Of a DNA stretch of 64,000 nucleotides, positions 7,144 through 62,504 are shown piece after piece. Below the pieces are notes generated by a model. That model worked only from the letters and a program-made list of their open reading frames with translations. It ran no database searches and was not told the DNA's origin. Positions within the stretch are counted from its first letter, which is position 1. Each line of letters starts with the position of its first letter. The DNA comes from Rickettsiales bacterium (GTDB taxonomy: Bacteria > Pseudomonadota > Alphaproteobacteria > Rs-D84). The DNA lies in assembly GCA_031266915.1 (NCBI GenBank), contig JAISAB010000002.1:12738-76737 (forward strand), in the 5' to 3' direction. The translations under genes were made by a program, and so were the position numbers.

Positions 7144-7989
7144 ATGAAACCGAATCACGAATCAAAAATCACAAATCACGACGAACGGCTGCCCGCCGGG
7201 CTGCATATCGTCGGAACGCCCATAGGAAATCTGTCGGATATGTCGCCGCGCGCAATCGATGTCCTGCGCCGCGCGGATTTAATTGCGTGCGAGGACACGC
7301 GTGTTTTCGGCAAGTTGGCCGCGCATTTCGACATAAAAACAAAAAAGGTGTCATTTCACGAGCATAACGAGCGCGCCGCGGTCGCAAACCTGACGGACAA
7401 AATTCAAAACGGCGCCGCCGTTGCCGTGGTCAGCGACGCGGGCATGCCCGGAATATCGGACCCGGGATTTCGCATTGCGCGCGAATGCCGCGCAGTGGGC
7501 CTGCCGGTGTTCGTGGTCCCAGGACCGGTGGCGGCGATTGCCGCGCTGGTGCTGTCGGGCTTTCCGACGGACCGGTTCACGTTCTGCGGATTCTTCGATG
7601 AAAAAAAAGCGCGCGACGACAACAGAATCCGCCACACAATTATTTACTACGAAAGTCCGAACCGCGTCATGGCGACCGTCGCGGCGCTGGCCCTGATTAT
7701 GCCCGAGCGACGCATAGCCATAGTGCGCGAAATCACAAAGATTCACGAAGAGACTATAATCGGCTATGCGGCGGAATTAATGCGCATAGAGCCGCCGCGC
7801 GGCGAAATCGTCATCGTAATCGAGCCTGCGCCGGAAACAAAGATGTCCGATGACGAAATATCCGAAATTGTAAATGATGTCGTCGCGGCGTCCACCAAGT
7901 CCGCGGCGGCAGATGTTGCCGCGCGCAGCGGGATTTCGAAAAAAGAAGCCTATAGGCGATTGATTAAAAAAGATGGGGGCACGCAATGA
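7144..7989 (+). CDS. rsmI: 16S rRNA (cytidine1402-2'-O)-methyltransferase RsmI
   Basis: LHIVGTPIGNLSDMSPRA…ACEDTR…VVSDAGMPGISDPG motifs; the N-terminal extension is encoded by a heptamer repeat. Confidence 0.85.
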   Translation: MKPNHESKITNHDERLPAGLHIVGTPIGNLSDMSPRAIDVLRRADLIACEDTRVFGKLAAHFDIKTKKVSFHEHNERAAVANLTDKIQNGAAVAVVSDAGMPGISDPGFRIARECRAVGLPVFVVPGPVAAIAALVLSGFPTDRFTFCGFFDEKKARDDNRIRHTIIYYESPNRVMATVAALALIMPERRIAIVREITKIHEETIIGYAAELMRIEPPRGEIVIVIEPAPETKMSDDEISEIVNDVVAASTKSAAADVAARSGISKKEAYRRLIKKDGGTQ

Positions 7990-8543: not shown

Positions 8544-11203
8544 AAAGCAACATCTTCTGCGCAAGCAATCCGGCAAGGCTGATTGACGCCTTGTGGGAAA
8601 TCATAAAGCAGGGCGGGTCGGACTTTTCCGACGACATTATATTCCTGCCGTCGCGGCGCGCTGCGCGCAGCGTTGAAAAAATGCTGGTTGAAAAATCCGG
8701 CGCCGCGGTATTGCTGCCTACGCTGGTGGCATTGGGCGAGGGTGCGGACGAAGACGACGATGACGTCGTCCATTCTGATGTTGTGTCGAATACCGAGCGC
8801 GTCGTCGTTCTGGCGAAACTGCTGAGCGCGGACGCGAACATACGGACGATTTCGAACGCGCTGCCGATTGCGCGCGATTTGACGCGTATGCAGGATTACC
8901 TGGAAAACGAGGGAATTGCCGCCGCCGCGATTGACTGGCCGGCGCTGGTCGATGAAAAGTACGCAGCGCATTTTCAGAAAAAGGCGGAATTTTTGAAATT
9001 ATCCGGCGCGTTCCTGTCTAACATATTTCCCAACAAAATCACCGAAACTCAAAAAAGAAACGCCGACATCCGCGCATGGATTAAATCCGAAATACTAAAT
9101 AATAAATCTAAAATCATTGTCTGCGGATCGACCGGCAGCGTACCGGCGACCGCCGACTTGATGGCCTATGTCGCGGGCATGTCCAACGGCTATATCATTC
9201 TGCCGGGCAAAATTAATTGCGGCCCCGGCGAATGGCCGATGGACGGCGGATTCAACGCGTGCAATCCGTACCATTGCGAAAAAATGTTCCTGGACCGGAT
9301 AAGCGTCGCGCCGTCTGACGTTCAAATTATCGATACAGGCCCGTCGAACATGGATTTCCTGAACGCTGCATTTTCAAATTCGGTTAACGGTTCACGGTTC
9401 ATGGTTTACGGCACGCAGTTGGTCGAATGCGCGCGCGAAAGCGAAGAGGCATGGTGCGTCGCCGAAATTGCTGCCCGCGCCGTGGCAGACAACAAAACCG
9501 TTCTGGTTATAACGCCCGACGCCGCCGGAAACCAGCGCATTGCCGCGGCGCTGAGCCATCGCGGCATAGCGGCCGACTTTTCGGGCGGAAAAAGCGGCGC
9601 CATGACGCTGGCGGGACGCGCGCTGTTGAATCTGTTCGACGATTGGATAGAGGATAAAAATTCGTCCGCATTCGACGGTTTGTATAAACGCAACGATTCC
9701 AATTTGTTCAAAACGTTGGTTGAGATTGTTGAAACAATGCCCGATGTTCTGTCGCCGCGGTTCCAATTCGATTCCGATGAATCGGCCGTCGTCTGGGACG
9801 CGCTGGAAAAGACGTCCGACGCATTGTCAAGGAACGGAATCGCGCTGACATTGTCCGACGCGCGCGCGGTGGTTGCGGACGCGCTGGCCGGCGCGACGGT
9901 CCGCCCGCCGATGAACGACGGCGCGGCCGTCTGCGTGCTGGGGACAATCGAATCCAGAATGCAAAGCGCCAATGTCGTCGTCCTGACCGGCTTGAACGAA
10001 GGGATGTTTCCCGCGCAAGGGTACGAGAATTCGTGGCTGCCGCGCACTATGGCGCAGAAAATCGGATTGCCGCCGGCGGACAGAAAGGTGTCGCTGATGG
10101 CACTGGACTTTATGAATCTGTCCTGCGGCGCGGAAGTTTACTGGCTGCGCAGCAAGACCGCCGGCGGCAGCCAGACCACCGAGAGCCGGTTTCTTTCAAG
10201 AATACAAGTCGCGACAAAGGTCGCAGATCGCAGAGCACAGAGCGAAGGTTTCGCCGCTTCGCGGCAGAGCGTAGAGCGCAGGTCGCAGGTGGAAGGTGTT
10301 GAACCACCTGCGCACTGCGCACTGCGACCTTCCACCTTGCTGCAAGCGGTGCGGGCCCGCGACGAGGTCGAATACAGGCCGCTGGATTATTCGCCGCCGC
10401 GCATTCCGGCCGACCGCAGCGACGTCTATGTGACCGAACTGGAATTGCTGATTCATAATCCTTATGCTTTCTATGCGCGGCATATATTGCGTCTGCGCCC
10501 GTTGGACGATTATTGGCAGGAACCCGATGCGCGCGACTTCGGCAATCTGGTGCACGGCGTGATAGAAGAATGTTCAAAGTTCAAAGTTCAGAGTTCAGAT
10601 GATTTGATAGAAATGATGGACAAACGCGCGAAGCAAATATTGCCGGCGGGCAGTGCCGTATATCATTTCTGGCACAAGCGCTTTGTCGAAATCGCTCCGG
10701 CTGTCGAGGCGCTGCTGCGGGAATCGCAGAGCCTGAACCGGCAGCAATCAGAAATCGACCTTTGTACGACCATCGCGGGTCGTCGCGTCCGTGCGCGCGC
10801 GGATATGGTTTATTACAAGCAATTTCCCGATTCTGCGGAACCGATTACCGTTGCGCTGGACATCAAAACGGGTGCAGTCCCGTCAAGAAGCCAGCTAGAG
10901 CAGGGCAATATGCCGCAATTGCCGCTGGAGGCGCATATGATTCAATCAGGCGGATTCGCCCAGGGGTCGGGGCCCCAGGTTCAAAGCCCGAATGTCGTCA
11001 TGCAGTTTCTGCAACTGAAAAACAATAACGTAAAGCTGATTGAATACGACGCGGACGCGACGCAAAAGATGATTGATGCCGCCGTCGACAAAGTATCACA
11101 GCTGTTCGGTCGATATTCGAATGATGGCGAGCCGTATGAATACTACGAAACGTCCGACCCAAAGTATAAGGTCTATGACGACCTGGCCCGCGTTGACGAT
11201 TAA
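8534..11203 (+). CDS. addB: AddB-like double-strand-break repair nuclease/inactive-helicase subunit, carrying an in-frame palindromic-element insertion
   Basis: N-terminal …IFLPSRRAARSVEKML… and C-terminal PD-(D/E)xK region (ADMVYYKQ…DIKTG), typical of alphaproteobacterial AddB. Confidence 0.6.
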   Translation: MPVKSNIFCASNPARLIDALWEIIKQGGSDFSDDIIFLPSRRAARSVEKMLVEKSGAAVLLPTLVALGEGADEDDDDVVHSDVVSNTERVVVLAKLLSADANIRTISNALPIARDLTRMQDYLENEGIAAAAIDWPALVDEKYAAHFQKKAEFLKLSGAFLSNIFPNKITETQKRNADIRAWIKSEILNNKSKIIVCGSTGSVPATADLMAYVAGMSNGYIILPGKINCGPGEWPMDGGFNACNPYHCEKMFLDRISVAPSDVQIIDTGPSNMDFLNAAFSNSVNGSRFMVYGTQLVECARESEEAWCVAEIAARAVADNKTVLVITPDAAGNQRIAAALSHRGIAADFSGGKSGAMTLAGRALLNLFDDWIEDKNSSAFDGLYKRNDSNLFKTLVEIVETMPDVLSPRFQFDSDESAVVWDALEKTSDALSRNGIALTLSDARAVVADALAGATVRPPMNDGAAVCVLGTIESRMQSANVVVLTGLNEGMFPAQGYENSWLPRTMAQKIGLPPADRKVSLMALDFMNLSCGAEVYWLRSKTAGGSQTTESRFLSRIQVATKVADRRAQSEGFAASRQSVERRSQVEGVEPPAHCALRPSTLLQAVRARDEVEYRPLDYSPPRIPADRSDVYVTELELLIHNPYAFYARHILRLRPLDDYWQEPDARDFGNLVHGVIEECSKFKVQSSDDLIEMMDKRAKQILPAGSAVYHFWHKRFVEIAPAVEALLRESQSLNRQQSEIDLCTTIAGRRVRARADMVYYKQFPDSAEPITVALDIKTGAVPSRSQLEQGNMPQLPLEAHMIQSGGFAQGSGPQVQSPNVVMQFLQLKNNNVKLIEYDADATQKMIDAAVDKVSQLFGRYSNDGEPYEYYETSDPKYKVYDDLARVDD
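10217..10340 (+). repeat. Palindromic element of about 125 bp (terminal inverted repeat AGGTCGCAG…CTGCGACCT) inserted in-frame in addB; RPE-like
   Basis: Near-identical copy at 47946..48079 inside xerC/D; open in several frames on both strands. Confidence 0.8.
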
Positions 11204-13769: not shown

Positions 13770-13914
13770 AATATATAATTCCTAATTGCTAATCATGGAT
13801 TCCTGATTTATAATATCTGTTGTCCAATATAAAAACAATAACAAATTCCCACCATGAATAGACATGCACGGGAATAACCTTAAGGGACGCCCGCCTGGCG
13901 CGGGCGCGGAAAAA

Positions 13915-15495
13915 ATGAATATGTTTCAATTGCTGGAAAAGACGACCGGACAGTATCCGAATAATCTTTTCCTGGTGCGCGAGGGCGTGAATTACACGGA
14001 CTTTGTGGATTTGGTGAAAAAACGCGCCGCCGTTCTGGACGGCATGGGCGTCAAAAAGGGCGACGTTGTTGGCATTCTGGCCCATAATATCCCCCAATTC
14101 CCGACCACTTTGTTCGCGATTTGGTATCTGGGCGCGCAATGCCTGCTGCTGGATACTAATCTGACCCCGTTCGAATACAACAACATGGCTGAGCTGACCA
14201 GCTGCAAAATCGTGTTCGCAGAAAACTCGTTCTTTTTCAAGACGAACAAAATCAAGTTCGTGGACATAACCGCCCCGGACGGCGCGGCGAACCCCGATTT
14301 AAAGGCCGCAGCCGTCGAGGCGTCCGACATCGCGACCCTGTCGTTCACATCCGGTTCGACCGGCACGCCCAAGGTCGTTCCACTGACGCACTTTAACTTG
14401 GTTGAATGCGCAAATTCGCTGGAAGACATGAACCGATGGATTAACCCGGGCGATGTCTTGTACGGATTCCTGCCGATGTACCACGTGTTCGGATTCGCGG
14501 TCGAAATCCTGGCGACGCTGCATTACGGCGCCGGGGTCCTGCTGCAGCCGACTGTCAACCCCAAGGACATCATGGATGACTTCAAGACATTTCGTCCGCA
14601 TGTCATTCCGGCCGTTCCGCGTTTGTGGGAGGTATTCCGCAACAAAATTATCGACAATATCAAGTCCCAAAAGAAATGGTGGCTGGTTTCGTTCGTACTG
14701 AAATACGGGAAATCGATGAAAAAAATCGGCTTGGGCTTTCTGGTAAGAAAGGTCCAGGGTCAAATTCTTGGCGTTTTCGGCGGACGCGCGGCGTTGCTGA
14801 TTGCGGGCGGCGCCGCCACCAAGCCTGAGGTCGAAACATTCTACGAGCGCCTGGGGCTGACGTTTATCCAAGGCTATGGCCTGACAGAAACGGTAGGACC
14901 AATTTGCATTTCCAAACCGACAAAAAAACGCTATCCTTTCGCGTTCGGCGGGCCGATAACGAACAACGAATGCGACATCCGTGACAAGAACGACGACGGC
15001 GTCGGCGTGCTGTGGCTGCGCGGGCACCAGGTGTTCGGCGGATATCTGGACAACCCGGACGTGAACGCAGAAGTGTTCGACGAAAAGGGATTCTTCAACA
15101 CAGGCGACATGGTCAGCATGGACCCGAACGGAGAGCTGCATTTCGCCGGCCGCAAAAAGCAGGTCATCGTTCTGGATTCGGGCAAGAACGTTTATCCCGA
15201 CGAGCTGGAGGGATTGTACATAACCATTCCGGGCGTCAAGAATGTCGCCGTATTTGAGCACAAGGTCAAAAACAAAACCGTGTCCTATGCGGTCTTCAGC
15301 GTCGACGACAAGATGACGGTCAACGAGTTGGCGTCCGCCGTCGCGTCAGCCAACAAAAAGGTCGCCAGTTACAAGTGGGTCACGCACTTTGCCATGACGA
15401 CCGAAGACCTGCCGCTGACCAGCACGCAAAAGGTCCGCCATCATGTCGTGCGCGATAAGCTGGTTGCCGGCGATTATCCGACAAGAAAAGAGTAA
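13915..15495 (+). CDS. Long-chain fatty-acid-CoA ligase (AMP-binding family, FadD-like)
   Basis: AMP-binding motifs TSGSTGTPKVV, YGLTET, GDMVSMDPNGELHFAGRKK. Confidence 0.75.
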   Translation: MNMFQLLEKTTGQYPNNLFLVREGVNYTDFVDLVKKRAAVLDGMGVKKGDVVGILAHNIPQFPTTLFAIWYLGAQCLLLDTNLTPFEYNNMAELTSCKIVFAENSFFFKTNKIKFVDITAPDGAANPDLKAAAVEASDIATLSFTSGSTGTPKVVPLTHFNLVECANSLEDMNRWINPGDVLYGFLPMYHVFGFAVEILATLHYGAGVLLQPTVNPKDIMDDFKTFRPHVIPAVPRLWEVFRNKIIDNIKSQKKWWLVSFVLKYGKSMKKIGLGFLVRKVQGQILGVFGGRAALLIAGGAATKPEVETFYERLGLTFIQGYGLTETVGPICISKPTKKRYPFAFGGPITNNECDIRDKNDDGVGVLWLRGHQVFGGYLDNPDVNAEVFDEKGFFNTGDMVSMDPNGELHFAGRKKQVIVLDSGKNVYPDELEGLYITIPGVKNVAVFEHKVKNKTVSYAVFSVDDKMTVNELASAVASANKKVASYKWVTHFAMTTEDLPLTSTQKVRHHVVRDKLVAGDYPTRKE

Positions 15496-15600
15496 ACTTT
15501 ACTATCGGTTCGCGTTGCGGGTGTTTTCGAACATTCATGTACGTTTTGTACACTACATGGTCGAAAACACCCGCAGTCGGCACAATATATGAAAATGATT
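15496..15600 (+). repeat. Divergent member of post-stop element family B (stem cgggtgttttcgaac / gtcgaaaacacccg around CATGTAC-N6-GTACAC)
   Basis: Same conserved core with covarying flanking stem; a T-run follows. Confidence 0.6.
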
Positions 15601-15633
15601 TGGTTTTTTAAGATGTGTATATAAAATACTTTC

Positions 15634-15672
15634 CACAAAAAAACAAACCCGCAGCCTGATTTGGCCTGCGGG
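15634..15672 (-). terminator. Terminator for the minus-strand gene 15723..16520 (cccgcaggc…gcctgcggg + T-run on the minus strand)
   Basis: 7-bp GC stem with an A-run on the plus side. Confidence 0.6.
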
Positions 15673-15722
15673 CAATTCATTTTGATTCGTCGATTTTTAT
15701 GTTCGGAATGTGTCGGAAAACG

Positions 15723-16520
15723 CTATTTGAAACCCAAAGGGTATTCGTCCCTGTTGCTTATGGGGATACCGGGCAAATCAATATTCGGATAACCTTCTGA
15801 TTTTAACAAATCCGTAATTTCATTGCCTGCAAATAGTTTTACATCATCCATACCGTCGTGTTTTGGATAAAATCCATTCGCAACATTATACCCATGTATA
15901 CATTGCAGCCCGCCGACCCCGCGCAAACAAATGGATTTCTGTTCATAGAAAAAATCCTTGTTATGCGCGCCCGGTATATCTCGGATGGTTTTCCCATCAG
16001 TAGACAAATATGCCAAACCTATGGAATTAAGTTTGTGTTCGTGGGTTCCAGTTTTATATGTATTTTCTGAAACGCGCTGAATCTTTCGTATATTCGGTAT
16101 GGAGATGATTGTATTATCAAAGTATCCATCTTTTCTTAAATAAATATTTTGCATATTTTCCATAAAGTTTTTGGGCAGTCCGTCATCATTGTCTATTCGG
16201 AATGTCAGCATGCGTTTTGCCTTTATGTCATCCGGGACGGTCATTTTATCATCTGAAATAAAAACATTTCGCAAAAAGGGAAATTCAGTCTCCAAACCTT
16301 TGAATATCAACCTTGCGTCTTCCGGCATAGTGTCAGAATGGTATAAAAGCAGTATAAAATCTTTGTTCGTTTGTTGCAATAGGCTTGCCAATGTGACCGC
16401 ACGAAATAATTTCAAACGGTCTTGCAAATATGGATTTTTCCACAAATCAACATTCCCTGTTACCGGATGGCCTTTTAAAAAAGCATTCAAGACCGAATAT
16501 CTCACCATTCCAATAATCAT
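15723..16520 (-). CDS. Hypothetical protein, low GC (about 40%), possibly horizontally acquired
   Basis: Long intact ORF with its own terminator; no confidently recognised domain. Confidence 0.5.
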   Translation of the reverse strand: MIIGMVRYSVLNAFLKGHPVTGNVDLWKNPYLQDRLKLFRAVTLASLLQQTNKDFILLLYHSDTMPEDARLIFKGLETEFPFLRNVFISDDKMTVPDDIKAKRMLTFRIDNDDGLPKNFMENMQNIYLRKDGYFDNTIISIPNIRKIQRVSENTYKTGTHEHKLNSIGLAYLSTDGKTIRDIPGAHNKDFFYEQKSICLRGVGGLQCIHGYNVANGFYPKHDGMDDVKLFAGNEITDLLKSEGYPNIDLPGIPISNRDEYPLGFK

Positions 16521-16607
16521 TATTATTTCCCAATTTTTTTCAATTCTTTCGCATTTCGGCAGGCTATGATTGGTTTTCCGAATTCAAGCACCGGTTTTTC
16601 TATCAAA

Positions 16608-17330
16608 TTATTTTCCGGAATTTTGCTTTGCGCGTTTCCATATTTCAAAACGAATTGTCGGGAACGGGGTGTCGGTTTTTTCCAATTTATGTTCGGCTGG
16701 GATGCGTGGCAACAGCTCGGCTTCTTCCTTGGTTTCAACGACCGTGTGATCGGTTGCCTCGTAAATGCCCGGCTCCATGGCGCCCAATCCATATTCTATA
16801 TAGTAATACAATTCGAAATTCGGCGCGGACATAAGCCCTAACATCTTTTCATCCATAGGGACCTTGCCGATCGGGCAAGCGTCTTTCGGCAGAACGGTTT
16901 TAAAGATTGCGTCGACCCGCGGCGTCGTCATCAATTCCGTCCCGGTCTGGCCGGCGCGCAGCACGTTTTGGCACATCGCATGGCCGCCGGTTATGAATGC
17001 CTTGTCATAATTTTTGTAAAAGCGCAGCGCTTCGCCCAAAGGGTCGTAAAAGGCCCCGATACCGAATGTCAGATGGGGGCCACGACTGAACACATCTGGC
17101 ACGATACCGGTGTTGCATTTGTTTGACGCAACCGCGCACGGCCTGTTTCGCAGCGAAAACAACGGCATGTTTTGCGCGGTGGCGCCGTCGAAAATCACCG
17201 GATAACCAATGGTGTTTAGGTCAAACCATTTCAGCGCAAGCGAGGAGTCATACGGTTCGGTAACCAGACCGTTTTCGGCCGTCGTTATAATCAGATTTAC
17301 TTCGGGGAAGTTTGCATACTTGGCGTTCAT
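16608..17330 (-). CDS. Dihydrofolate-reductase-fold protein (RibD C-terminal / DHFR family)
   Basis: NLIITTAENGLV…PYDSSLALKWFDLNTIGYPVIFDGATAQNMP…LRNRPCAVASN parallels the DHFR motifs (I-A-x-x-x-NG-IG; LPW…DL…FK; VIMGRKT; RPLPGR-N-IVLS). ATG at 17330 chosen. Confidence 0.45.
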   Translation of the reverse strand: MNAKYANFPEVNLIITTAENGLVTEPYDSSLALKWFDLNTIGYPVIFDGATAQNMPLFSLRNRPCAVASNKCNTGIVPDVFSRGPHLTFGIGAFYDPLGEALRFYKNYDKAFITGGHAMCQNVLRAGQTGTELMTTPRVDAIFKTVLPKDACPIGKVPMDEKMLGLMSAPNFELYYYIEYGLGAMEPGIYEATDHTVVETKEEAELLPRIPAEHKLEKTDTPFPTIRFEIWKRAKQNSGK

Positions 17331-17390
17331 TGTAAAAACCTTTTTTTGTTTTTTTCGACCACATTGTATATGAAAATATTCGGATTTCAA

Positions 17391-18716
17391 CTATTTCCCC
17401 AAACACAGTTGCCCGAACGCCGCATCCGCGATTTCGTCCGCGCCGATGACGCCCAATATCCTGCCGACGGCGTCAGCCGCGGCGCGCGCGTGTTCTGCGA
17501 ATATATCGTAATCGGTAATCGGTAATCGGTAATCCGACAGGGCGGACCGCAATTCATCGGCGGCGGTTTCCAGCAGTCCGCGCGTTCGTTCATTCACGGC
17601 GATGTCGGATTCCGCGCCATCCAGCATCGCGTGCATTTTTTGCTTAATCGCGTCCAGCAGTTCAGGAATACCGTCGCCGGTAAGGGCGGAGGCATGAATG
17701 GATGATGGATGATGGATAATGGATGACGGGTCGATTAAATCGGATTTGTTGATAACAATAATCTCGTTATCTTTGGCCGCTTCATTCAACATTCCACACT
17801 CAACATTCAACACTTTTATAATCAAATCGGCGTTTTCGATTTCCGCATGCGCGCGCTGGATGCCGATGTTTTCAATCGCGTCGTTCGATTCGCGGATGCC
17901 GGCCGTGTCGGACAGATTGACCAGGTATCCGTCTATGTCCAGTTCCGCGTCGACCACGTCGCGCGTCGTTCCGGGAATGTCTGACACGATGGCGCGCGCA
18001 TGGCCGACCAGTCTGTTGAACAAAGACGATTTGCCGACGTTGGTTTCACCCGTAAAAACGATATTGAAACCGCCGCGGACGGCGCGCGCCGCCGCATAGC
18101 CCGATAACGCGCCGCGGATGTCCGCATGCAGTTTCTTTGTTTGCGCAAATAATTTCTCGCCGATGTTTTCCGGCAATTCGTCGGAGGCATAATCCAAAAT
18201 CGCGGCAGCGTACGCGGCGATTTCCACCATTTGGCTGCGCCATGATTCATAGACGGAACTATCGCCGCCCGTCATGGATTTCAGGGCAAGCATGCGCTGG
18301 CGGTCCGTGCGCGCATCCAGCAGCGCCGCCAGGCCATCGACCGCCGGCAAATCCATTTTATTGTTGTAAAAGGCGCGGCGGGAAAACTCGCCGGGCTGGG
18401 CTATGCGCATTCCATGTGTGCGCAGATGTTCGAATATTTTCTCGATAACGGCCGACGCCCCGTGGCAATGGATTTCGACGACGTCTTCGCCGGTGAACGA
18501 ATTCGGCGCGCGAAAATAAATCGCGATAATTTGGTCAATCAAAGCGCCGCTGTCGTCGCGCAGGTCGGTCAGATAGGCATGGCGCGGAATAATGGATGAT
18601 GGATAATGGATGATGGATGACGGGTTGATTTGGCCGCTGATGCGGATGACGGCGACGCCGGATTTTCCCAGGCCCGATGATAATGCAAAGATTGCGTCGC
18701 CGGTTTCTCGGTTCAT
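17391..18716 (-). CDS. mnmE: tRNA modification GTPase MnmE (TrmE), carrying three in-frame heptamer-repeat insertions
   Basis: G-domain GETNVGKSSLFN, DTAGIRE, NKSDL; C-terminal …CLGK. Confidence 0.85.
   Translation of the reverse strand: MNRETGDAIFALSSGLGKSGVAVIRISGQINPSSIIHYPSSIIPRHAYLTDLRDDSGALIDQIIAIYFRAPNSFTGEDVVEIHCHGASAVIEKIFEHLRTHGMRIAQPGEFSRRAFYNNKMDLPAVDGLAALLDARTDRQRMLALKSMTGGDSSVYESWRSQMVEIAAYAAAILDYASDELPENIGEKLFAQTKKLHADIRGALSGYAAARAVRGGFNIVFTGETNVGKSSLFNRLVGHARAIVSDIPGTTRDVVDAELDIDGYLVNLSDTAGIRESNDAIENIGIQRAHAEIENADLIIKVLNVECGMLNEAAKDNEIIVINKSDLIDPSSIIHHPSSIHASALTGDGIPELLDAIKQKMHAMLDGAESDIAVNERTRGLLETAADELRSALSDYRLPITDYDIFAEHARAAADAVGRILGVIGADEIADAAFGQLCLGK
17512..17535. repeat. 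GGTAATC heptamer tandem repeat (×4) inside the mnmE CDS
   Basis: Seen directly; encodes …DYRLPITDYD… without breaking the ORF. Confidence 0.7.
17696..17728. repeat. TGGATGA/TGGATAA heptamer tandem repeat inside the mnmE CDS (encodes PSSIIH-type repeats)
   Basis: Seen directly; related copies at 18592..18621 and 56727..56830. Confidence 0.7.
18592..18621. repeat. Second TGGATGA heptamer repeat tract inside mnmE
   Basis: aatggatgatggataatggatgatggatga. Confidence 0.7.
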
Positions 18717-18717
18717 A

Positions 18718-19302
18718 TCATTTCCCGCTTATTAATTTCAGCGCCATCGGGACCAGTTTCTCGACGCCGGAATCCGGATTGTCGCCGACCAGTTTCTGGG
18801 CGACCTCGACAATGTCCGCCCGTTTATATCCCAATGATTCCAGCGCTGACAACAAATCCGCCAATGCGGAATAATTCGAACCAGTTCCCGATACCTGATA
18901 CCCAGTACCCGTTTTTCCCTTTAATTCCAGAATAATCTTTTCCGCGACCTTTTTGCCTACGCCCGGCGCTGTATGGATTGTCTTGGCGTCGCCGGCGGCG
19001 ATGGCCGTCAGCAAAACGTCCGTTTTCAACGCGCCCAGGATGGCCATCGCGACCTTGGGGCCTACGCCGGACACGGTCGTCAATTGGTTGAATAATTCCT
19101 GGCTTGCCCGCGTCGCGAATCCGAACAGACGGATGGAATCGTCGCGTACAATCGTTTCAATCCACAATGTTGCTGCGGATTTCGGGTCGCCGATTGCCGA
19201 TTTGTCCGGCGTAAAGACCTTGTATCCCACACCGCCGGACGTCATAATAATCACATAATCGTTATCGATGTAGTCAACAATTCCTTGCAATTTGCCAATC
19301 AT
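18718..19302 (-). CDS. ruvA: Holliday junction branch-migration protein RuvA
   Basis: MIGKLQG…; HhH motifs (LTTVSGVGPKVA, IHTAPGVGKKVAEKI). Confidence 0.85.
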   Translation of the reverse strand: MIGKLQGIVDYIDNDYVIIMTSGGVGYKVFTPDKSAIGDPKSAATLWIETIVRDDSIRLFGFATRASQELFNQLTTVSGVGPKVAMAILGALKTDVLLTAIAAGDAKTIHTAPGVGKKVAEKIILELKGKTGTGYQVSGTGSNYSALADLLSALESLGYKRADIVEVAQKLVGDNPDSGVEKLVPMALKLISGK

Positions 19303-19371
19303 TTTGTATCCTTTTGGAAAATCATAGATTATAAATCGTCAGTCAGCAATAAAAAAACGGAGTCTTTTTAC

Positions 19372-20088
19372 ATGTCGGGACATTCAAAATGGCATAACAT
19401 TATGCATAAAAAGGGCGCCGCCGACGCGGCCCGCAGCGGCTTGTTCACCAAACTGGCGCGCGAAATCACCATGGCGGCCAAGCTGGGCGACAAGAACCCT
19501 GACAACAATCCGCGCCTGCGGCTGGCGATTTTAAACGCGCGCAAGAATTCCATGCCGAACGATAATATCAAGCGCGCGATTGACAAGGCCTCGGCTGGCG
19601 GCATGGACAATTATTCGGCCGTTCGGTACGAGGGGTACGGTCCGGGCTCGGTCCCTGTTATAGTCGAGGCGCTGACCGACAACCCGCGCCGCACCGTGCC
19701 GGAAATCCGCAGCATATTCAACAAGAACGGCGGCAGCATGGGCGAGGAAAATTCCGTATCGTTCCTGTTTACCCGCGCGGGCCAGATTTTCTATGCGCCG
19801 AATGCGGCGGCGAATCCCGACGACATGATGATGGCCGTGATGGAGGCCGGCGGCGACGATGTCGAATCGTCCGAAGACGGATATATCGTAACGACCAAGC
19901 CGGACGATTTCATGGCCGTTCAAAAGGCGCTGGCGGACAAGCTGGGCGACCCCGAGCGGGCCGAGCTGACCTGGATTCCGAACATGCCGGTCGATTTGGA
20001 CGACGAAACGTACGCGCGGCTGGAGAAACTGGTGGACTTGCTGTCTGATAACGACGATGTACAAAAGGTAATAACGGCAGCGGCGTAA
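19372..20088 (+). CDS. yebC: YebC/PmpR-family transcriptional regulator
   Basis: MSGHSKWHNIMHKKG… canonical N-terminus; start ATG at 19372. Confidence 0.85.
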   Translation: MSGHSKWHNIMHKKGAADAARSGLFTKLAREITMAAKLGDKNPDNNPRLRLAILNARKNSMPNDNIKRAIDKASAGGMDNYSAVRYEGYGPGSVPVIVEALTDNPRRTVPEIRSIFNKNGGSMGEENSVSFLFTRAGQIFYAPNAAANPDDMMMAVMEAGGDDVESSEDGYIVTTKPDDFMAVQKALADKLGDPERAELTWIPNMPVDLDDETYARLEKLVDLLSDNDDVQKVITAAA

Positions 20089-20210
20089 AATTAAATTCTA
20101 TGGATGTCTGCTTGCATTAACCGTCGGGTCGTGTACGTCTTTGTACACTCCCCTTTGGTTAATGCGGCGCATTCATCTCATATAAATTTAATTTTTTAAA
20201 ATATAAAAAA
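20088..20210 (+). repeat. Post-stop element family B copy (terminal inverted repeat AAATTAAATTCTATGG…CTCATATAAATTTAATTTTTT; stem gcattaacc/ggttaatgc; core CGTGTAC-N6-GTACAC)
   Basis: Seen directly; begins at the yebC stop. Confidence 0.7.
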
Positions 20211-20638: not shown

Positions 20639-21124
20639 ATGACGCGCATTTTGGGGATTGACCCCGGGCTTTTGCACACGGGATGGTCTGTGATTGATTC
20701 GGCCGGCAACGCGCGGGCCTATGTCGCCAGCGGCGTGATTCTGCCGCCAAAGACCGAGGAGCTGGCCGTGCGCCTGGCATTTATTTTCCGCGAAGTGTCG
20801 AAATTGCTGGATATATGGAAACCTGACGAATGCTCGGTCGAAATCATATTTGTGAACAAGAATCCGAAAACGACGCTGGTTCTGGGCCAGGCGCGCGCGG
20901 CCGCGCTGATTGCCGTCGCGGACAAGGTTATCCCGGTTTTCGAGTACGAGCCGAACAAGATAAAAAAAGCGCTGAGCGGCGCGGGCCACGCCGACAAGGA
21001 ACAGATTTATAAAATGGTGAAGCTGCTGCTGCCGGTGGCCAATCCGAAAACGTCGGACGAAAGCGACGCGATTGCCATCGCGCTGGCGCATAGTAATATG
21101 AGCAGGGTAATAGTTAGTAAATAG
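20639..21124 (+). CDS. ruvC: Crossover junction endodeoxyribonuclease RuvC
   Basis: MTRILGIDPGLLHTGWSV…; catalytic D/E pattern; …AIAIALAH… C-terminal motif. Confidence 0.85.
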   Translation: MTRILGIDPGLLHTGWSVIDSAGNARAYVASGVILPPKTEELAVRLAFIFREVSKLLDIWKPDECSVEIIFVNKNPKTTLVLGQARAAALIAVADKVIPVFEYEPNKIKKALSGAGHADKEQIYKMVKLLLPVANPKTSDESDAIAIALAHSNMSRVIVSK

Positions 21125-21212
21125 TGATTAGTGCTTAGTTGATAGTGCATAGTTAATTAGTTCACTAATCACTATAAACTATTCACTATACACTACCAAC
21201 TATTTGTTTTTC
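21104..21212. repeat. TAGTNNN-heptad hairpin element between convergent ruvC and the 21211 gene
   Basis: tagtgat tagtgct tagttga tagtgca tagttaa … cactaat cactata aactatt cactata. Confidence 0.7.
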
Positions 21213-47001: not shown

Positions 47002-47003
47002 AT

Positions 47004-47659: not shown

Positions 47660-48631
47660 TTATAACTTCCTCCGCGCCAGCGGATGGTGCTGTTCGACGG
47701 TGTCCCGCAGTTTCTGGGGCAGGACGTGCGTGTATATCTGCGTGGTGGAAATATCCTCGTGCCCCAGCATGGTCTGAATCGCGCGCAGGTTCGCGCCGCC
47801 CGCCAGCAGATGCGACGCGAACGAATGCCGCAGGACGTGCGGGCTGACGCGATTCGGGTCGATTCCGGCCAGGACCGTGCACTTTTTCAATATCTTGAAA
47901 AATCCGTCGCGGGTTATGTGACCCGTCTTGCTGTTTGATGGAAAAACATATTTTGAGGTCGCAGAGCGCAGAGCACAGAGCGCAGGTTTCGCCGCTTCGC
48001 GGCAGAGCGAAGAGCGCAGGTCGCAGGTAGAAGGTGTTGATAATGACGAACCACCTTCGCTCTGCGTTCTGCGACCTTCCACCTGTTGCGCATCCATCCA
48101 CTTGCCCAGCGCGCGCTGGGCGGATTCGTGCATCGGGACCAGACGTTCCTTGGCGCCCTTGCCGTGAATCAGCAACTTGTCGCCCAAGACGGCGGTAACG
48201 GGCAGCTCGCACAGCTCGGACACGCGCAAACCCGACGCGTACAGCAATTCCAGCATGGCCCGCAGGCGCAGTGAATTTTTAATATCGCCGGCGCTGGATA
48301 TTAGCAGCTCGATTTCGTCGACCGACAGGAATTTCGGCAACGTTTTCTGGCGCTTGGGCAATTCCAAGCCAATCGACGGATTGGCATGGATGATTTTTTC
48401 CAACATCAGGAATTTGTAAAATCCGCGCAGAGAGCTGGCCTTGCGCGCAACCGACGACGCGCGGCAGGGCAGGGACGACAGATACGACTGCAGCGCCTCG
48501 GCGGTCGTGGCCGTCAAATCGCCCAGATGATTCTGCGCGTGCGACAGGTCGCTGCCATAGCTTTCCAGCGTTTTTCTGCTGCGGCCTTTTTCGGCCGACA
48601 GGGCCTCTAAAAATATCTCGATACAATTCAT
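47660..48631 (-). CDS. XerC/XerD-family tyrosine recombinase carrying an in-frame palindromic-element insertion
   Basis: …HVLRHSFASHLLAGGANLRAIQTMLGHEDISTTQIYTHV… catalytic R-H-R-Y box; start at MNCIEIF (ATG 48631). Confidence 0.8.
   Translation of the reverse strand: MNCIEIFLEALSAEKGRSRKTLESYGSDLSHAQNHLGDLTATTAEALQSYLSSLPCRASSVARKASSLRGFYKFLMLEKIIHANPSIGLELPKRQKTLPKFLSVDEIELLISSAGDIKNSLRLRAMLELLYASGLRVSELCELPVTAVLGDKLLIHGKGAKERLVPMHESAQRALGKWMDAQQVEGRRTQSEGGSSLSTPSTCDLRSSLCREAAKPALCALRSATSKYVFPSNSKTGHITRDGFFKILKKCTVLAGIDPNRVSPHVLRHSFASHLLAGGANLRAIQTMLGHEDISTTQIYTHVLPQKLRDTVEQHHPLARRKL
47946..48079 (+). repeat. Second copy of the palindromic element of about 130 bp (terminal inverted repeat AGGTCGCAG…CTGCGACCT), in-frame in xerC/D in the opposite orientation relative to the host gene
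   Basis: About 85-90% identical to 10217..10340; adds about 45 aa (…QQVEGRRTQSEGGSSLSTPSTCDLRSSLCREAAKPALCALRSATS…). Confidence 0.8.
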
Positions 48632-55861: not shown

Positions 55862-56728
55862 ATGCAATTGAAATTTATGAAGTACAGAAAGCTGTCGTAC
55901 TGGGTTTCCGGCATTTTGGTGGCGCTTAGCGTTCTGTCACTGGCGACGCGCGGATTGAATTACGGCATCGATTTCGCGGGCGGCATTTCGATGGAGGTCA
56001 CGCCAATCTCGGCCGACTACACAATCGACAAGATGCGCCACGACTTGGCCGAATTTGGCCCAGAACTGCAATCGGTGGACAACAACAAATCCATCTTGGT
56101 GCGCGTCGGCCTGCCCAAGGGCGCCACGGACGAGCAGCAGAACCAGCGCGTCCGCGAAATTAAAGAAATCTTGGGCGAAAAAGTTCAATACTCCCAGGTT
56201 CAAATCGTCGGTCCGAAAATCGGCGGCGAACTGGTCCGCGGCGGCATATGGGCGATTCTGATTTCATTCATACTGATGTCGGTTTATATCTGGATTCGAT
56301 ACAAGGGCGGATATGCGGTGGGCTCGTTCGTGTCGCTGGTGCTGGACTTTGTTTTGATGTTCGGATTCTTCTCGGTCGCGGGACTGGAATTCAACCAGAC
56401 GTCCATCGCGGTCATCTTGATGGGTATCGGATATTCCATCAACGACAAGGTCGTGAATTATGACCGCATCGACGAGAACATCAGAAGATACCACAAGATG
56501 CCGATGACGGATTTAATCGACCTGTCGGTGAACGAGATGATGCGCCGGACAATCATGACCTCTGTTTCCACCATCCTGGCCATGATAGGGCTGTACTTGT
56601 TCGGCGGCGGCATGCTGCGGGATTTCTCGGTCGCGATGACGTTCGCGGTCGTTATGGGCACGCTGACAAGCATCTATATATCCAACGTCGTGCTGTATCA
56701 CTTTAACCTGCGCGAGACGGACTATTAA
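55862..56728 (+). CDS. secF: Protein translocase subunit SecF
   Basis: …GIDFAGGISMEV… SecF signature and 6 transmembrane segments. Confidence 0.9.
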   Translation: MQLKFMKYRKLSYWVSGILVALSVLSLATRGLNYGIDFAGGISMEVTPISADYTIDKMRHDLAEFGPELQSVDNNKSILVRVGLPKGATDEQQNQRVREIKEILGEKVQYSQVQIVGPKIGGELVRGGIWAILISFILMSVYIWIRYKGGYAVGSFVSLVLDFVLMFGFFSVAGLEFNQTSIAVILMGIGYSINDKVVNYDRIDENIRRYHKMPMTDLIDLSVNEMMRRTIMTSVSTILAMIGLYLFGGGMLRDFSVAMTFAVVMGTLTSIYISNVVLYHFNLRETDY

Positions 56729-56745
56729 TGGATGAGGGATAAGGG

Positions 56746-58284
56746 ATGATGGGATTTAAAAAAATATTCGACATAAAGATATTATTTGCGTTGATGTCTT
56801 TTCTGCCATCATCCATCATTTATCATCCATTGTTCGCAACCGATTTGTTCCATGAAGATGAAACCGTCCAGGCTGGGCTGAATGTGTTCGCGGTCTCGGA
56901 TGTCTTCGCCGATATATATCAAAAGCTGGACGGGATGTCCTGGGGCGGCAAGACCATCAACGTCGCCATCGAATCGGTGGAAAACATTCACCCTGACGCG
57001 CATATTGCCGCAACGGACGAGCGCGTCGTCCTGGTCTGGCGCGATTCGATTGTCTCGAATTATCCGCGGCCCGCGGCCGGCGACTGGCAGGGATTCGGCC
57101 AGATTACGACCGCGCTGATTGTGAAACTGCGCCAGCTGATTCCCGAATTCGGTCGCGCGTCGGAAAGCGCCATGTACCAAACGGTGGTCGACAGCCTGAT
57201 GCGCGGCGTGGATGAAAACGGCCGGTATATCTATTCGCGCGCGGCCGAAATCGACGAAGATGGTCGGATTCTGACCAGCGCCGGGTTGCAGGGTGGACGC
57301 GACAACCGCGGCAATTTCCGCGTGACCGGCATTTACAAGGATTCACCCGCGGACGTCGGTGGCGTCAAAGCCGGCGATTTGATTACGAAAATGAACGGCG
57401 CGCGCGTCGCGGATATGTCAGAAGCGGATGTGGCGTCCGTGCTGTCGGGCTTTAATTCCGGCACTTTGAAACTGACGGTTCTGGCCCCCGGCGGCGAAAA
57501 GCAGGTAGTTCTACGCCGTGCGACAATCGTTCTGGCGGATGCGGACATCGTTCATCGCGCCGATGCCGACAGCGGCGCGGGATTGCTGGAAATCGTCGTG
57601 CACAAGGTATCGAACGCCTCGGTTTCCATCGTCAACGAAGCCTTGGCAAAATATCCCGATGTGACGGGAATCGTTCTGGACCTGCGCGGCGCGATTGGCG
57701 ACGACGAGCGTGCGGCCGCGAAACTATCCGGCCTGTTTATCGGTCAGGTTCCGGTCATGCGCATTGTCGAGACGGCCCGCGCCGAGGTCGAAATCGTCCC
57801 GGGCGCCGGCAAAGTCGCCGACGCGCCGATTGTCGTTCTAATATCTAACACGACGCGCGGCACGGCCGAGGCCATCGCCGCCGCGTTTTATGAAAACAAT
57901 CGCGGCGTCTTGGTCGGAACGCCGACCGCCGGCAGCGCGCGCATCGCGACAAAAATCGATTTGGAAAACGGCGGCGCGCTGGAATTGCTGAACAAGTCCG
58001 TCAAAACCGGCCGCGGCAGCATAATCGACGGCCGCGGAATTTTCCCACTGGTATGCCTGTCCAATATCCGTTCGAACGAACAGCAGGGCGCCTTTTTCCT
58101 GAACGTGCTGAACGGCGATTTCAAGGCCCAGGACTTTAACGGAAATATGAATCTGACGCCGGACGCCATCCGCAAGGGATGCCCGACCATCACCAGCGGC
58201 GCGGACGAGGATGCGCTGTCCGCCGCCGTTTCGGTTCAGATACTGACGGATAGGAAGATTTATAATAAGCTTATAAGTGAATGA
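56746..58284 (+). CDS. Carboxy-terminal-processing (S41) peptidase with PDZ domain; the N-terminus contains TGGATGA-type heptamer repeats
   Basis: PDZ (…GVKAGDLITKMNGARV…) and S41 motifs (…GIVLDLRGA…, …VLISNTTRGTAEAIAAAF…). Confidence 0.7.
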   Translation: MMGFKKIFDIKILFALMSFLPSSIIYHPLFATDLFHEDETVQAGLNVFAVSDVFADIYQKLDGMSWGGKTINVAIESVENIHPDAHIAATDERVVLVWRDSIVSNYPRPAAGDWQGFGQITTALIVKLRQLIPEFGRASESAMYQTVVDSLMRGVDENGRYIYSRAAEIDEDGRILTSAGLQGGRDNRGNFRVTGIYKDSPADVGGVKAGDLITKMNGARVADMSEADVASVLSGFNSGTLKLTVLAPGGEKQVVLRRATIVLADADIVHRADADSGAGLLEIVVHKVSNASVSIVNEALAKYPDVTGIVLDLRGAIGDDERAAAKLSGLFIGQVPVMRIVETARAEVEIVPGAGKVADAPIVVLISNTTRGTAEAIAAAFYENNRGVLVGTPTAGSARIATKIDLENGGALELLNKSVKTGRGSIIDGRGIFPLVCLSNIRSNEQQGAFFLNVLNGDFKAQDFNGNMNLTPDAIRKGCPTITSGADEDALSAAVSVQILTDRKIYNKLISE

Positions 58285-60275: not shown

Positions 60276-62504
60276 ATGGCCGATAATTCGAAATTCTTGC
60301 CGGAACGCGTTTCCGGCGCGTTAAAAAGTCTGGGCGTCCGCGCGGCGGGGGCTGCTTTGTCGCTGTTGGGCGTTTGGCTTGTCTTTGCGCTGGTGTTCGG
60401 CGACCCATATCTGAACGGATTCGCCGCCGCCGGCGGATTTGGAAAACAAAGCCTGGTCGGCAATATCGTCGGATTTATCCGCTACGGCATCGGCTTTGTG
60501 CCGGCATTGTTTCTGTTCCTGTGCCTGGCGCGGACTGGTTTATCGTTTATGCTGAACCGGCCGGCAGAACGCGCGCCGGAATATAATTTATTGCGCGGCT
60601 TTATCGCGGTGTGCGCGGGCGCGGCCGGATTGGGCGCGATGGCGCCATCAGGCACCCTGGGCGGACTGGCGGGCAGCATTGTTGCGAATGACATAGGCGG
60701 AATACTGGGCGGCTGGACAGTCCTGGCGGGGATTCTGTTCTTCGGCGTTTTTGTGCTGATAGCGTGCCGGCTGCTGAATATAAAGCTGAGCGATTTGCGC
60801 GGCATTATCCGCGCAATCTTCAGGTCCGTCGTCTGGCTGCTGTCCGTGTTCCATCTAATCAAGCCGACCGCTGCGCCGAACCAAGACGACGAGGAATACG
60901 AGTACGACGCCGCCACCGACGCTGTGCCCGCAAAAAAAAGCAAAAGGCAAAAGGCCGAGGTTCCGGCAACAAAGCAACCACCGCGTCGGCGAATCACGAG
61001 TCACGAATCACGAGTCACGAACGAATACGAATTGCCGCCGCCGGAATTCCTGGAAAAATCCGTGATGGGCAAGACTTCGATTACGCCGGATCTAAAGCGC
61101 AACGCCGGCGCCCTGGAAACACATTTCGAGGAGTTCGGCGTATACGGACGCGTGATGGGAATCAAGCCGGGTCCCATCGTCACGCTGTATGAATTCCAGC
61201 CCGATTCCGGCGTCCGCATCGCCAAGGTCACCGATACCGTCAAGGACATGACGCGCGCGATGGCGACCGAAAACATCCGTATTGCACATATTCCGCGCAC
61301 CAACTATATCGGCGTTGAGATGGTGAATTTGAACCGCCAGACCCTGCGTTTCCAGTCACTGATAACCAATCCGTCGTTCATGAATTCCAAGTATCGGATA
61401 CCGCTGGCGCTGGGGGTGGACATCGGCGGAAATTCCATGTACTTTGATTTGGCCAGAATGCCGCACGTGCTGATTGCGGGACGCACGGGCTCGGGCAAGT
61501 CCGTGTTCGTGCAATCTATTATAATGTCCGTGCTGTATCACTTTACGCCGGACCGGTGCAAGCTGATGATTGTCGACCCAAAGGGCGTCGATTTTACGCT
61601 GTGGGACAACATACCGCATCTGGTAACGCCCGTTCTGACCGATCCGGCGTCTTCGGTGAACGCGCTGAAGTGGTCCGTGCGCGAAATGGAAGAGCGGTAT
61701 AAAAAACTGAAAGACCTGGGCGTCCAGAATATCGAGGGATACAACGACGCCGTCGCGAAGCTGCGCGCCGCCGGAAAACCGGTCACCAAGCAGATTGCCG
61801 TCGGCACCGACGAAGAGACCGGCGGCTTGATATTCGAGAACCAGGAAATCGATTTATCGGACATGCCGTATCTGGTCATTATTATCGACGAGGTCGCGGA
61901 CCTGATGTCCGTCGCGCGAAAAGAGGTCGAGGCCTGCGTCCAGCGCCTGGCGCAAAAGGCGCGCGCCGCCGGAATCCACCTGGTCGCGGCGACCCAGCGT
62001 CCGGACACGACCGTCATCACCGGCGTCATCAAGGCCAATTTCCCGACGCGCATATCGTTCCAGGCGCGCAGCAACATCGACAGCATGACCACATTGGGCG
62101 AGAAGGGCGCCGAGCAATTGCTGGCGTTCGGCGACATGCTGTTCAGCGAGGCCGGGCGCGTCCCCGTCCGCATCCACGGGTCGCTGATTGAAAATTCCGA
62201 AATCAACAAGGTGGCCGATTTCCTGCGCGCCCAGGGCGAGCCGACGTATGCCGCCGGCGTGACCGACGGAGACGGCGACGACGGATTCGCGGGCGGCGGC
62301 ATGCCGATGTCCAAGGGCGACAAGGATTCCGATTTGTACGAGCAGGCCAAGCAATACGTCGTGCGCGACAAAAAGCCGACGATTTCCTATATCCAGCGCC
62401 GGCTGGGCGTGGGCTATAACAAGGCCGCGGGCTTTATGGAACGCATGGAGGCCGAGGGCGTCGTCAGCCCGCCCGACGCCAACAACAAAAGGCAGATATT
62501 GTAA
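60276..62504 (+). CDS. ftsK: DNA translocase FtsK (with an in-frame CGAATCA/CGAGTCA heptamer tract in the linker)
   Basis: N-terminal transmembrane segments, Walker A GRTGSGKSV, DEVADLM, and a C-terminal winged-helix gamma domain. Confidence 0.9.
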   Translation: MADNSKFLPERVSGALKSLGVRAAGAALSLLGVWLVFALVFGDPYLNGFAAAGGFGKQSLVGNIVGFIRYGIGFVPALFLFLCLARTGLSFMLNRPAERAPEYNLLRGFIAVCAGAAGLGAMAPSGTLGGLAGSIVANDIGGILGGWTVLAGILFFGVFVLIACRLLNIKLSDLRGIIRAIFRSVVWLLSVFHLIKPTAAPNQDDEEYEYDAATDAVPAKKSKRQKAEVPATKQPPRRRITSHESRVTNEYELPPPEFLEKSVMGKTSITPDLKRNAGALETHFEEFGVYGRVMGIKPGPIVTLYEFQPDSGVRIAKVTDTVKDMTRAMATENIRIAHIPRTNYIGVEMVNLNRQTLRFQSLITNPSFMNSKYRIPLALGVDIGGNSMYFDLARMPHVLIAGRTGSGKSVFVQSIIMSVLYHFTPDRCKLMIVDPKGVDFTLWDNIPHLVTPVLTDPASSVNALKWSVREMEERYKKLKDLGVQNIEGYNDAVAKLRAAGKPVTKQIAVGTDEETGGLIFENQEIDLSDMPYLVIIIDEVADLMSVARKEVEACVQRLAQKARAAGIHLVAATQRPDTTVITGVIKANFPTRISFQARSNIDSMTTLGEKGAEQLLAFGDMLFSEAGRVPVRIHGSLIENSEINKVADFLRAQGEPTYAAGVTDGDGDDGFAGGGMPMSKGDKDSDLYEQAKQYVVRDKKPTISYIQRRLGVGYNKAAGFMERMEAEGVVSPPDANNKRQIL
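60990..61027. repeat. CGAATCA/CGAGTCA heptamer tandem tract inside the ftsK linker
   Basis: gaatcacgagtcacgaatcacgagtcacgaacgaatacg encodes …RRITSHESRVTNEYE…; related tracts at 7150..7185 and 37281..37306. Confidence 0.7.

Follow-up and report, generated by a model that had tools for sequence, protein, structure and literature searches.

The gene mnmE in the 64,000-nucleotide stretch of DNA analysed here (the window; contig JAISAB010000002.1 of assembly GCA_031266915.1, from a Rickettsiales bacterium of the lineage Rs-D84) carries four short tandem arrays of 7-nt units, and heptamer tracts also lie at the start of an S41 protease gene in the same window. These tracts are probably passenger sequence of a strong, genome-wide tendency of this lineage to reiterate DNA in steps of 7 nt. 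The mnmE tracts are in-frame survivors, tolerated only in the most permissive loops of the protein, and nothing points to on/off switching. The nearest relatives belong to a group of uncultured Alphaproteobacteria close to Candidatus Enterousia (order Rs-D84), gut bacteria whose genomes are reduced (PMC12306168); no description of heptamer repeats was found in that paper.

Four Heptamer Arrays in an Intact mnmE Gene

The mnmE open reading frame (ORF) was identified by the Pfam domains TrmE_N, MnmE_helical, and MMR_HSR1 and by an end-to-end alignment with MnmE from the PDB (E 1.7e-69). A preliminary description of the window had reported three heptamer tracts in this gene. All three are real and lie, within a few bases, at the positions reported, inside one open frame of 441 aa, but the count is four, since a tract of CATTCAA x4.3 (17783-17812) had been missed. 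We refer to the four arrays as sites A to D, in the order of the protein (Table 1). Tandem Repeats Finder (TRF) called ATGGATG x4.1 at site A (18592-18620, 90% matches), the CATTCAA tract at site B, ATGGATG x4.1 again at site C (17698-17726, 90% matches), and GTAATCG x3.9 at site D (17508-17534, 100% matches). Only the GTAATCG tract is perfect, the others showing 82-90% matches; read in the GGTAATC register, site D consists of three perfect copies and one CGTAATC. At site B, one unit is TGTGGAA, precisely where a perfect copy would give an in-frame TGA. The tracts do encode PSSIIH-type peptides, as that description had stated. The same description was also right that a change of one unit would shift the reading frame of the mnmE and protease ORFs, 7 nt not being a multiple of 3.

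Sites A and C are 92.5% identical over 40 bp (17697-17736 and 18591-18630). The shared segment takes in a non-periodic flank that encodes I-D/N-P, and the "L-I/L-D" motif is native at site C only. Read from the sequence, this suggests that a copy was made from site C to site A.

We rejected an assembly artefact as the source of the tracts, which are at most 40 nt long, are the same in two assemblies, and have similar counterparts in many independent metagenome-assembled genomes. Run SRR14710922, as assembled independently by Logan, matches the window at 100% identity and without gaps through all four mnmE tracts; the contig concerned (L167) corresponds to window positions 11993-20154 and is apparently from the same sample as the window. 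The Logan contigs end at dispersed intergenic repeats, not at the mnmE tracts. A hairpin role for the mnmE tracts of the window was rejected as well. No inverted partner was found within 250 nt, where the best reverse-complement match was 9-11/14, the random level, and a duplex between sites B and C was not significant (-20 kcal/mol, z = -0.4).

The Arrays Lie in the Most Variable Loops of MnmE

The window protein was compared with 145 unique orthologues, taken from 146 full-length orthologous loci. No relative closer than ~72% MnmE identity was found in protein clusters, GTDB species genomes, or JGI metagenome contigs, and the 90%-identity cluster of the window MnmE has a single member. The alignment of MnmE orthologues, which the preliminary description had proposed as a check, places the tracts in the four least conserved segments of the protein: the four least conserved stretches of 12 aa are 305-316, 390-401, 328-339, and 32-43, corresponding to sites B, D, C, and, in fourth place, A. 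Each site was modelled by AlphaFold (mean pLDDT 76) as coil between conserved secondary-structure elements. In the N-terminal domain, site A comes after the second strand. Sites B and C lie on either side of the G4 (NKSD) strand of the G domain, with site C between the NKSD motif and the next strand, and site D is in the helical domain, where it separates helix 376-394 from helix 403-421. The tracts stand in for native loop residues at near-equal length, the net difference being -2 to +4 aa.

The same loops have been struck in the relatives. Among the 145 orthologous genes, 28 period-7 arrays were counted, as compared with 12 arrays at lag 5, 11 at lag 6, and 0-1 at lags 8-10; 26 of the 28 are in the same four sites (A 3, B 12, C 9, D 2), and the units found there are listed in Table 1. 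At site B the array is held at ~4 units in lineages of 59-68% protein identity. All 146 full-length loci are uninterrupted and none is frameshifted, despite the 28 arrays in the unique genes, and in a set of 85 MnmE orthologues there are no internal stops and 84 of the proteins end in GK. The motifs G1-G4 and the C-terminal CLGK motif are invariant in the orthologue alignment, and dN/dS outside the tracts is 0.10 against the relative L001 and 0.135 against L002.

Sites A and B also harbor material of another kind. Palindromic in-frame inserts that are not heptameric and are unrelated to the heptamer arrays are found at site A of P0006 (L081:987-2429; 35 aa, hairpin of -54 kcal/mol) and P0048 (L082:10001-11359; 17 aa, -53 kcal/mol), and site B of L028 and L052 has a G/C-rich double hairpin.

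Period-7 Excess in the Window and in the Lineage

In a strict lag scan (at least 17/21 lag matches, lags 4-15, 20 Markov shuffles), 25 arrays were counted at lag 7 in the 64-kb window and 14 at lag 14, which is a multiple of 7; no other lag gave any, nor did the shuffled sequences. With a looser threshold (at least 11/14 matches, lags 4-12) there were 47 arrays at lag 7 and 0-12 at the other lags. The units are diverse and include TAGTCAn/TAGTGAn, CGAATCA, ATGGATG, GTAATCG, AGAGCGC/AGGTCGC, CAAAGTT, AATAAAG, GCAAATA, AAATCAG, and others. Two calls were not counted as evidence: the "array" at 8651-8673 is a false positive in a conserved GC-rich segment, and that at 57062-57088 is also GC-rich and may be another.

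Although genes make up ~86% of the window, 29 of its 47 arrays lie between genes or across gene ends. Coding DNA has ~0.33 arrays per kb and the non-coding 14% has ~3.3, so that the arrays are about tenfold denser outside genes. Of these 29 arrays, 22 have a reverse-complementary array within 250 nt, and 27 show TAG, TGA, or TAA on at least one strand. Inside genes the sense units of 16/18 arrays are stop-free in every frame (random expectation 0.70), and the two exceptional arrays each have a mismatch precisely at the would-be stop. The maximal copy number is 4.6 units in coding and 7.6 in intergenic arrays; this difference is marginal (Mann-Whitney p = 0.065) and serves as a supporting observation only.

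Heptamer-array density is a lineage trait. The window has 3.9 arrays per 10 kb, L002 has 2.35, and L001 and L064 have 1.4 each, while most of 80 related loci have none; where sporadic arrays are present, lag 7 is the commonest period. A full-length mutL (HATPase, DNA_mis_repair, and MutL_C domains) is encoded at 50466-52208, so the excess does not stem from a gross loss of mismatch repair. The AAATCAG unit family, found in the window at 50432-50466, also occurs in L084, as an AAATCAG x5 array in the N-terminal part of ruvA (L084:1622-1661); unit families are thus common to the genomes while the loci differ. The yebC-ruvA spacer of L084 has a further heptamer array (L084:1439-1473).

Proposed Reiteration of Native Heptamers in Place

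Site D shows how an array may be born. Its last unit in the window is a native D-Y-D block (GAT TAC GAT), for which relatives read AAT TAC GAT. In L084 the same site reads CACGAAT-CACAAAT-CACAAAT-CACGAC; the last unit is the native N-H-D block, read as AAT CAC GAC in L002, and the L084 loop equals the L002 loop plus exactly 7 codons (3 units). Since two lineages have different site D arrays made from their own local heptamers, the arrays appear to have been reiterated in place. The comparison points to in-place reiteration of a native heptamer, with preservation of the frame allowing only +3 unit steps. Arrays also change in concert. The MnmE proteins of L116 and L109 are 89% identical and both have four units at site B, but all four units differ (AAAGTTC x2 and AAAGTGC x2 in L116, AGAGTGC x4 in L109).

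We propose that a native heptamer would be multiplied in place by slippage-like reiteration, with occasional copying to other sites. Intergenic arrays could then expand freely, up to 7.6 units, usually as inverted pairs that would form hairpins at gene ends. Within genes, purifying selection would spare only those arrays that lie in the most permissive surface loops and whose unit and orientation give no stop in any frame, and length would change only in frame, either by +3 units (+21 nt, or 7 codons) or with an offsetting loss of neighbouring loop codons. The PSSIIH-type peptides would be an automatic by-product, since a heptamer array runs through all three frames in each 21 nt. As these arrays mutate actively, frameshifted variants that are one unit longer or shorter probably arise and are then purged, and such variants would be mutational load, not regulation. 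We infer both slippage as the enzymatic cause and the reason for the 7-nt register.

Inverted Pairs and Palindromic Elements

The preliminary description had also noted a TGGATGA repeat at the start of the protease gene. Tracts are indeed present in the start region, but they form an inverted pair and not one direct repeat. The gene (56746-58284) encodes a protein with Pfam Peptidase_S41 and PDZ domains. The RNA fold of the pair has a minimum free energy of -38.4 kcal/mol (z = -3.88), and 0/200 shuffles were as stable. The stem takes in the secF stop codon as well as the upstream start codon of the protease and its Shine-Dalgarno-like AAGGGA, and the hairpin would sequester the latter two. The start itself differs by annotation source (512 aa in JGI, 511 aa in NCBI, 496 aa in Logan), and the PSSIIYHP peptide falls in the presumed signal-peptide region of the protease.

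The commonest array type in the window is a palindrome with a TAGT core, a dispersed family of at least 12 copies at gene ends. Self-BLAST and alignment showed arms of 5-6 heptamers in which TAGT/ACTA is kept at intervals of 7 nt, with variable spacer bases in between. With three or more such units, each frame of either strand contains TAG or TGA. The UAG-N4 periodicity of these palindromes presumably resembles that of the HutP binding site.

A longer palindrome of ~120-125 bp, with a fold of ~-65 kcal/mol, is present in frame in two unrelated genes, one for an AddB-like nuclease and one for XerC/D. Self-BLAST aligned the two copies at 95% identity across 85 bp and at 89% across the adjoining 37 bp. 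When XerD of the window was aligned with PDB 1A0P, residues 32-204 and 252-338 matched, leaving ~48 residues between them as compared with ~14 in XerD; the counterpart of query residues 204-252 in 1A0P is the stretch 188-202. Compared with eight orthologues, the AddB-like protein is longer by ~30 aa net through the element, which sits at a variable site; L001 has an unrelated insert there. No target-site duplication was evident at the ends of the element, and no transposase or REP-associated tyrosine transposase (RAYT) was found among the ~60 ORFs of the window.

In five relatives (L001, L084, L030, L064, and L082) the arrays at sites B and C of mnmE are reverse complements of each other (CAAAGTG-type and CACTTTG-type). 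Duplex energies range from -26 to -32 kcal/mol, no higher than the 1st percentile of cross-genome controls, and the pair frames the conserved segment that codes for G4 (NKxD) as a hairpin loop (for example L084:3013-3140). The five taxa fall in two distant clades, and the hairpin is present in only 5/85 orthologues. The window mnmE has lost this pairing.

Table 1: Positions of the heptamer arrays and palindromic elements of the window, with the units found at the mnmE sites in relatives.
Feature	Position	Strand	Description	Units in relatives
mnmE	17391..18716	minus	intact 441-aa ORF with four heptamer arrays; same as NCBI MDR1337518.1 (100% identity)	
Site A array	18587..18626	minus	sense unit CATCCAT, ~5 copies; encodes NPSSIIHYPSSII, aa 31-44	AAATCRC in L051, L054
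Site B array	17783..17814	minus	sense unit TGTTGAA, ~4 copies; encodes KVLNVECGMLNE, aa 301-312	AATCAGG in L002; CAAAGTK in ten lineages
Site C array	17695..17731	minus	sense unit CATCCAT, ~4-5 copies; encodes PSSIIHHPSSIH, aa 330-341	CCTCAAA in L002; CACTCTG/GAACTCT in six lineages; A-rich tract in L093
Site D array	17505..17539	minus	sense (GATTACC)x3 + GATTACG-AT; unit GATTACC; encodes SDYRLPITDYD, aa 393-404	AATCACR in L084
Protease inverted pair, arm 1	56726..56752	plus	ATGGATG family; over secF stop (56726-56728), protease Shine-Dalgarno-like AAGGGA, and start ATG (56746)	
Protease inverted pair, arm 2	56805..56830	plus	CCATCAT units, inside S41/PDZ protease ORF; encodes LPSSIIYHPL	
Palindromic element (~120-125 bp), copy 1	10218..10337	plus	AGGTCGC/AGAGCGC heptamers; in frame in AddB-like PD-(D/E)XK nuclease gene	
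Palindromic element (~125 bp), copy 2	47956..48084	minus	in frame in xerC/D; adds ~34-43 aa	
TAGT-core palindrome, representative	21108..21202	.	intergenic, ~90-100 bp	
TAGT-core palindrome, other copies	11341-11430, 23220-23315, 23646-23736, 26700-26808, 28077-28176, 31254-31352			
TAGT-core palindrome, further copies	44156-44261, 47002-47118, 59929-59968, 60171-60229, 63722-63769			
rsmI array	7150..7182	plus	ACGAATC, N-terminus (TP_methylase)	
AddB-like gene array	10567..10601	plus	TCAAAGT; encodes CSKFKVQSSDD; net +3-4 aa in variable loop	
ftsK array	60989..61022	plus	ACGAATC/ACGAGTC	

Alternative Explanations

Several observations weigh against passenger reiteration. No enzymatic cause of the 7-nt register was identified, and the absence of arrays at lags 5 and 8 is not explained by simple slippage. 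At site D of the window the net length is only 0 to +3 codons relative to the nearest relatives, so that an expansion of 7 codons needs a compensating deletion, and a step of +3 units by way of frameshifted intermediates calls for one event of several units or else for a transient tolerance of mnmE loss. The conserved TAGT core with its variable spacers resembles motif selection or the copying of a mobile palindrome more than pure slippage. Slippage alone does not predict complementary arms at sites B and C around the G4 motif, and paired arms around an essential native segment fit neither slippage nor a single insertion.

The mnmE tracts could instead derive from small, non-autonomous, mobile palindromes that inserted in frame, as solo arms or decayed copies of them, of the type of Rickettsia palindromic elements (RPEs) or miniature transposable elements with inverted repeats (MITEs). 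RPEs are documented in frame in housekeeping genes (PMC10969869), and the window has the ~125-bp element, a true net insertion in XerD and the AddB-like protein, as well as the dispersed TAGT-core family. Sites A and C share their 40-bp copy, a unit of the ATGGATG family forms the hairpin at the protease start, and unrelated strong hairpins occupy sites A and B in other lineages. The mnmE tracts of the window, however, have no inverted partner and add little or no net length, and the arrays at site D are made of local native codons in two lineages with different units, which a foreign insertion would not do. With the lack of a transposase in the window and of an evident target-site duplication at the ~125-bp element added, we judge this explanation unlikely. 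A still weaker case can be made for arrays selected as nucleic-acid elements, whether as an mRNA hairpin that acts in translation or decay or as periodic sites for a protein that reads a motif every 7 nt. It would account for the B/C complementarity around G4 in two distant clades, the persistence of ~4 units at site B, the periodic TAGT core, and a protease hairpin that spans a start codon and a Shine-Dalgarno-like sequence. But the complementarity is not significant in the window, where sites A, C, and D are unpaired, and it is found in few orthologues. L109 has a perfect array at site B and none at site C, so pairing does not maintain the arrays, and in L084 the C arm is perfectly homogeneous and the B arm heterogeneous, which indicates that the arms were homogenised separately. 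The many unrelated units also argue against one sequence-specific binder, and selection on such elements is in our view quite improbable as the origin of the arrays. We give similarly little credence to the proposal that the clade has an active, dedicated mechanism which writes DNA in a 7-nt register, beyond ordinary slippage, and that some of its products have been co-opted. Candidates for such products would be the complementary mnmE B/C arrays that two distant subclades have around the G4 segment, and the gene-end palindromes with TAGT every 7 nt, which would act as periodic binding sites or as all-frame-stop terminators.

The preliminary description had itself offered two explanations, a phase-variation switch and relaxed selection, and neither was upheld. 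Adaptive phase variation, in which the gain or loss of heptamers would toggle mnmE and the protease, agrees with a unit length that is not a multiple of 3, with a GTAATCG tract that is perfect over 3.9 copies, and with the concerted change of units within arrays over evolutionary time, which implies that some slippage or conversion occurs. Against it, the mnmE tracts have at most 4-5 copies and are mostly imperfect (TRF, 3.9-4.3 copies at 82-100% matches), as opposed to 13-24 copies in hmw1A, a switch established by experiment, and MnmE is a tRNA-modification GTPase, whereas contingency loci are typically concerned with the surface, host interaction, or restriction-modification. The same kind of array is present in ftsK, xerD, rsmI, and the AddB-like gene, the mnmE tracts being a few of the 47 in 64 kb. 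None of the 146 orthologous loci is frameshifted, the copy number is conserved between relatives, and the independent k-mer assembly is unbroken with the same tract lengths, a result with which low-frequency variants are compatible. Switching is therefore very improbable. That mnmE and the protease are under relaxed selection, or are starting to become pseudogenes, might have been expected from unusual low-complexity peptides in conserved enzymes and from relatives that belong to a reduced-genome lineage (PMC12306168). It is already contradicted by the data, and we give it almost no weight: the ORF is intact, all GTPase motifs and CLGK are invariant, dN/dS is ~0.10-0.13 outside the tracts, the tracts are limited to the four most variable loops, and the mismatch in one array specifically avoids an in-frame stop. 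Passenger reiteration under purifying selection thus stays the reading that we prefer.

Comparison with Known Heptamer Repeats

The over-representation of heptamers in bacteria has been known since 2007 and, to our knowledge, still has no tested explanation. The lineage studied here is an unusually clean natural experiment in this respect, because the birth of arrays from native codons is visible and the reading frame filters for +3-unit steps. The same four loops of one conserved enzyme have been struck repeatedly with different units, and the units shift in concert at a fixed copy number. The interest is moderate, and mainly lies in making the question of why bacterial simple sequence repeats (SSRs) favour heptamers more tractable. 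In practice, PSSIIH-like low-complexity peptides in conserved enzymes are not necessarily assembly errors, signs of pseudogenes, or switches, and programs that predict phase variation from SSRs will call too many switches in genomes like that of the window.

Heptamer SSRs are over-represented in many bacteria, and slippage set by the footprint of the polymerase has been hypothesised (Mrazek 2007 as cited in Rehm 2015, PMC4692102). The short tandemly repeated repetitive (STRR) sequences and GGGGA(T/C)T repeats of cyanobacteria and the GGGAATC repeats of Xanthomonas, as described in the same paper, are similar to the arrays of the window in their period-7 excess, their several unit families, and their mostly intergenic location. 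Some form inverted pairs between convergent genes, their length and sequence vary among related species, and slippage has been proposed for them. The arrays described here differ in their host, which is of another phylum, being an uncultured alphaproteobacterium (Rs-D84/Enterousia kin), in being short (3-7 units), and in that many lie in frame inside housekeeping genes, recurring at homologous loops across the clade. Their units are not G-rich and so have no G-quadruplex potential, unlike the STRR and Xanthomonas heptamers. As the host is alphaproteobacterial and the units differ, they are not members of the named cyanobacterial STRR unit families or taxa, although they work alike.

Within ORFs, the TAACTGA repeats of marine Beggiatoaceae, cyanobacteria, and Bacteroidetes take the stop-free orientation only, and they lie at the periphery of the proteins (MacGregor 2015, PMC4679880). 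The likeness to the window is that the all-frame-stop orientation is kept to gene ends and intergenic DNA. In that system, however, one dominant unit lies just upstream of start codons, which suggested translational regulation, whereas here there are many units, mostly in inverted pairs at 3' ends, in addition to the arrays inside enzyme loops. The ~125-bp xerD/AddB-like element behaves like an RPE (PMC10969869), RPEs being short palindromes that lie in frame in unrelated housekeeping genes, where the protein structure tolerates them; the likeness is one of behaviour. RPEs are not described as heptamer-periodic, and the mnmE tracts differ from them in being unpaired, in adding nearly no length, and in consisting of native codons at site D. 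The promoters of hmw1A and hmw2A in Haemophilus influenzae, which control a surface adhesin, have a heptanucleotide switch of 13-24 perfect units (PMC8262952). A 7-bp unit whose copy number can change by slippage is common to both cases, but the arrays here have at most 4-5 copies, are mostly imperfect, and lie inside housekeeping ORFs, and no OFF alleles were seen among 146 loci and two assemblies.

Other Repeats in the Window

An Rfam scan of the window gave two tRNAs and no other RNA family. The 5' part of tRNA-Gly(TCC) (4341-4415) has an exact duplicate of 43 bp, 91 bp upstream of the tRNA (4208-4250, matching 4341-4383), which adjoins an EcoRI-like adenine methyltransferase with a T5orf172 domain (ORF 2317-3822). 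The duplicate could be the att-site remnant of a small integrated element. Three further repeats are not heptameric: a direct repeat of 163 bp at 91% (25553-25715 and 63804-63966), an inverted repeat of 142 bp at 84% (12215-12355 and 52804-52945), and a direct repeat of 106 bp at 87% (21413-21518 and 22288-22393). The copies of the last repeat fall in two neighbouring ORFs that lack annotation, 21211-21609 and 21600-22505, and that are probably paralogues.

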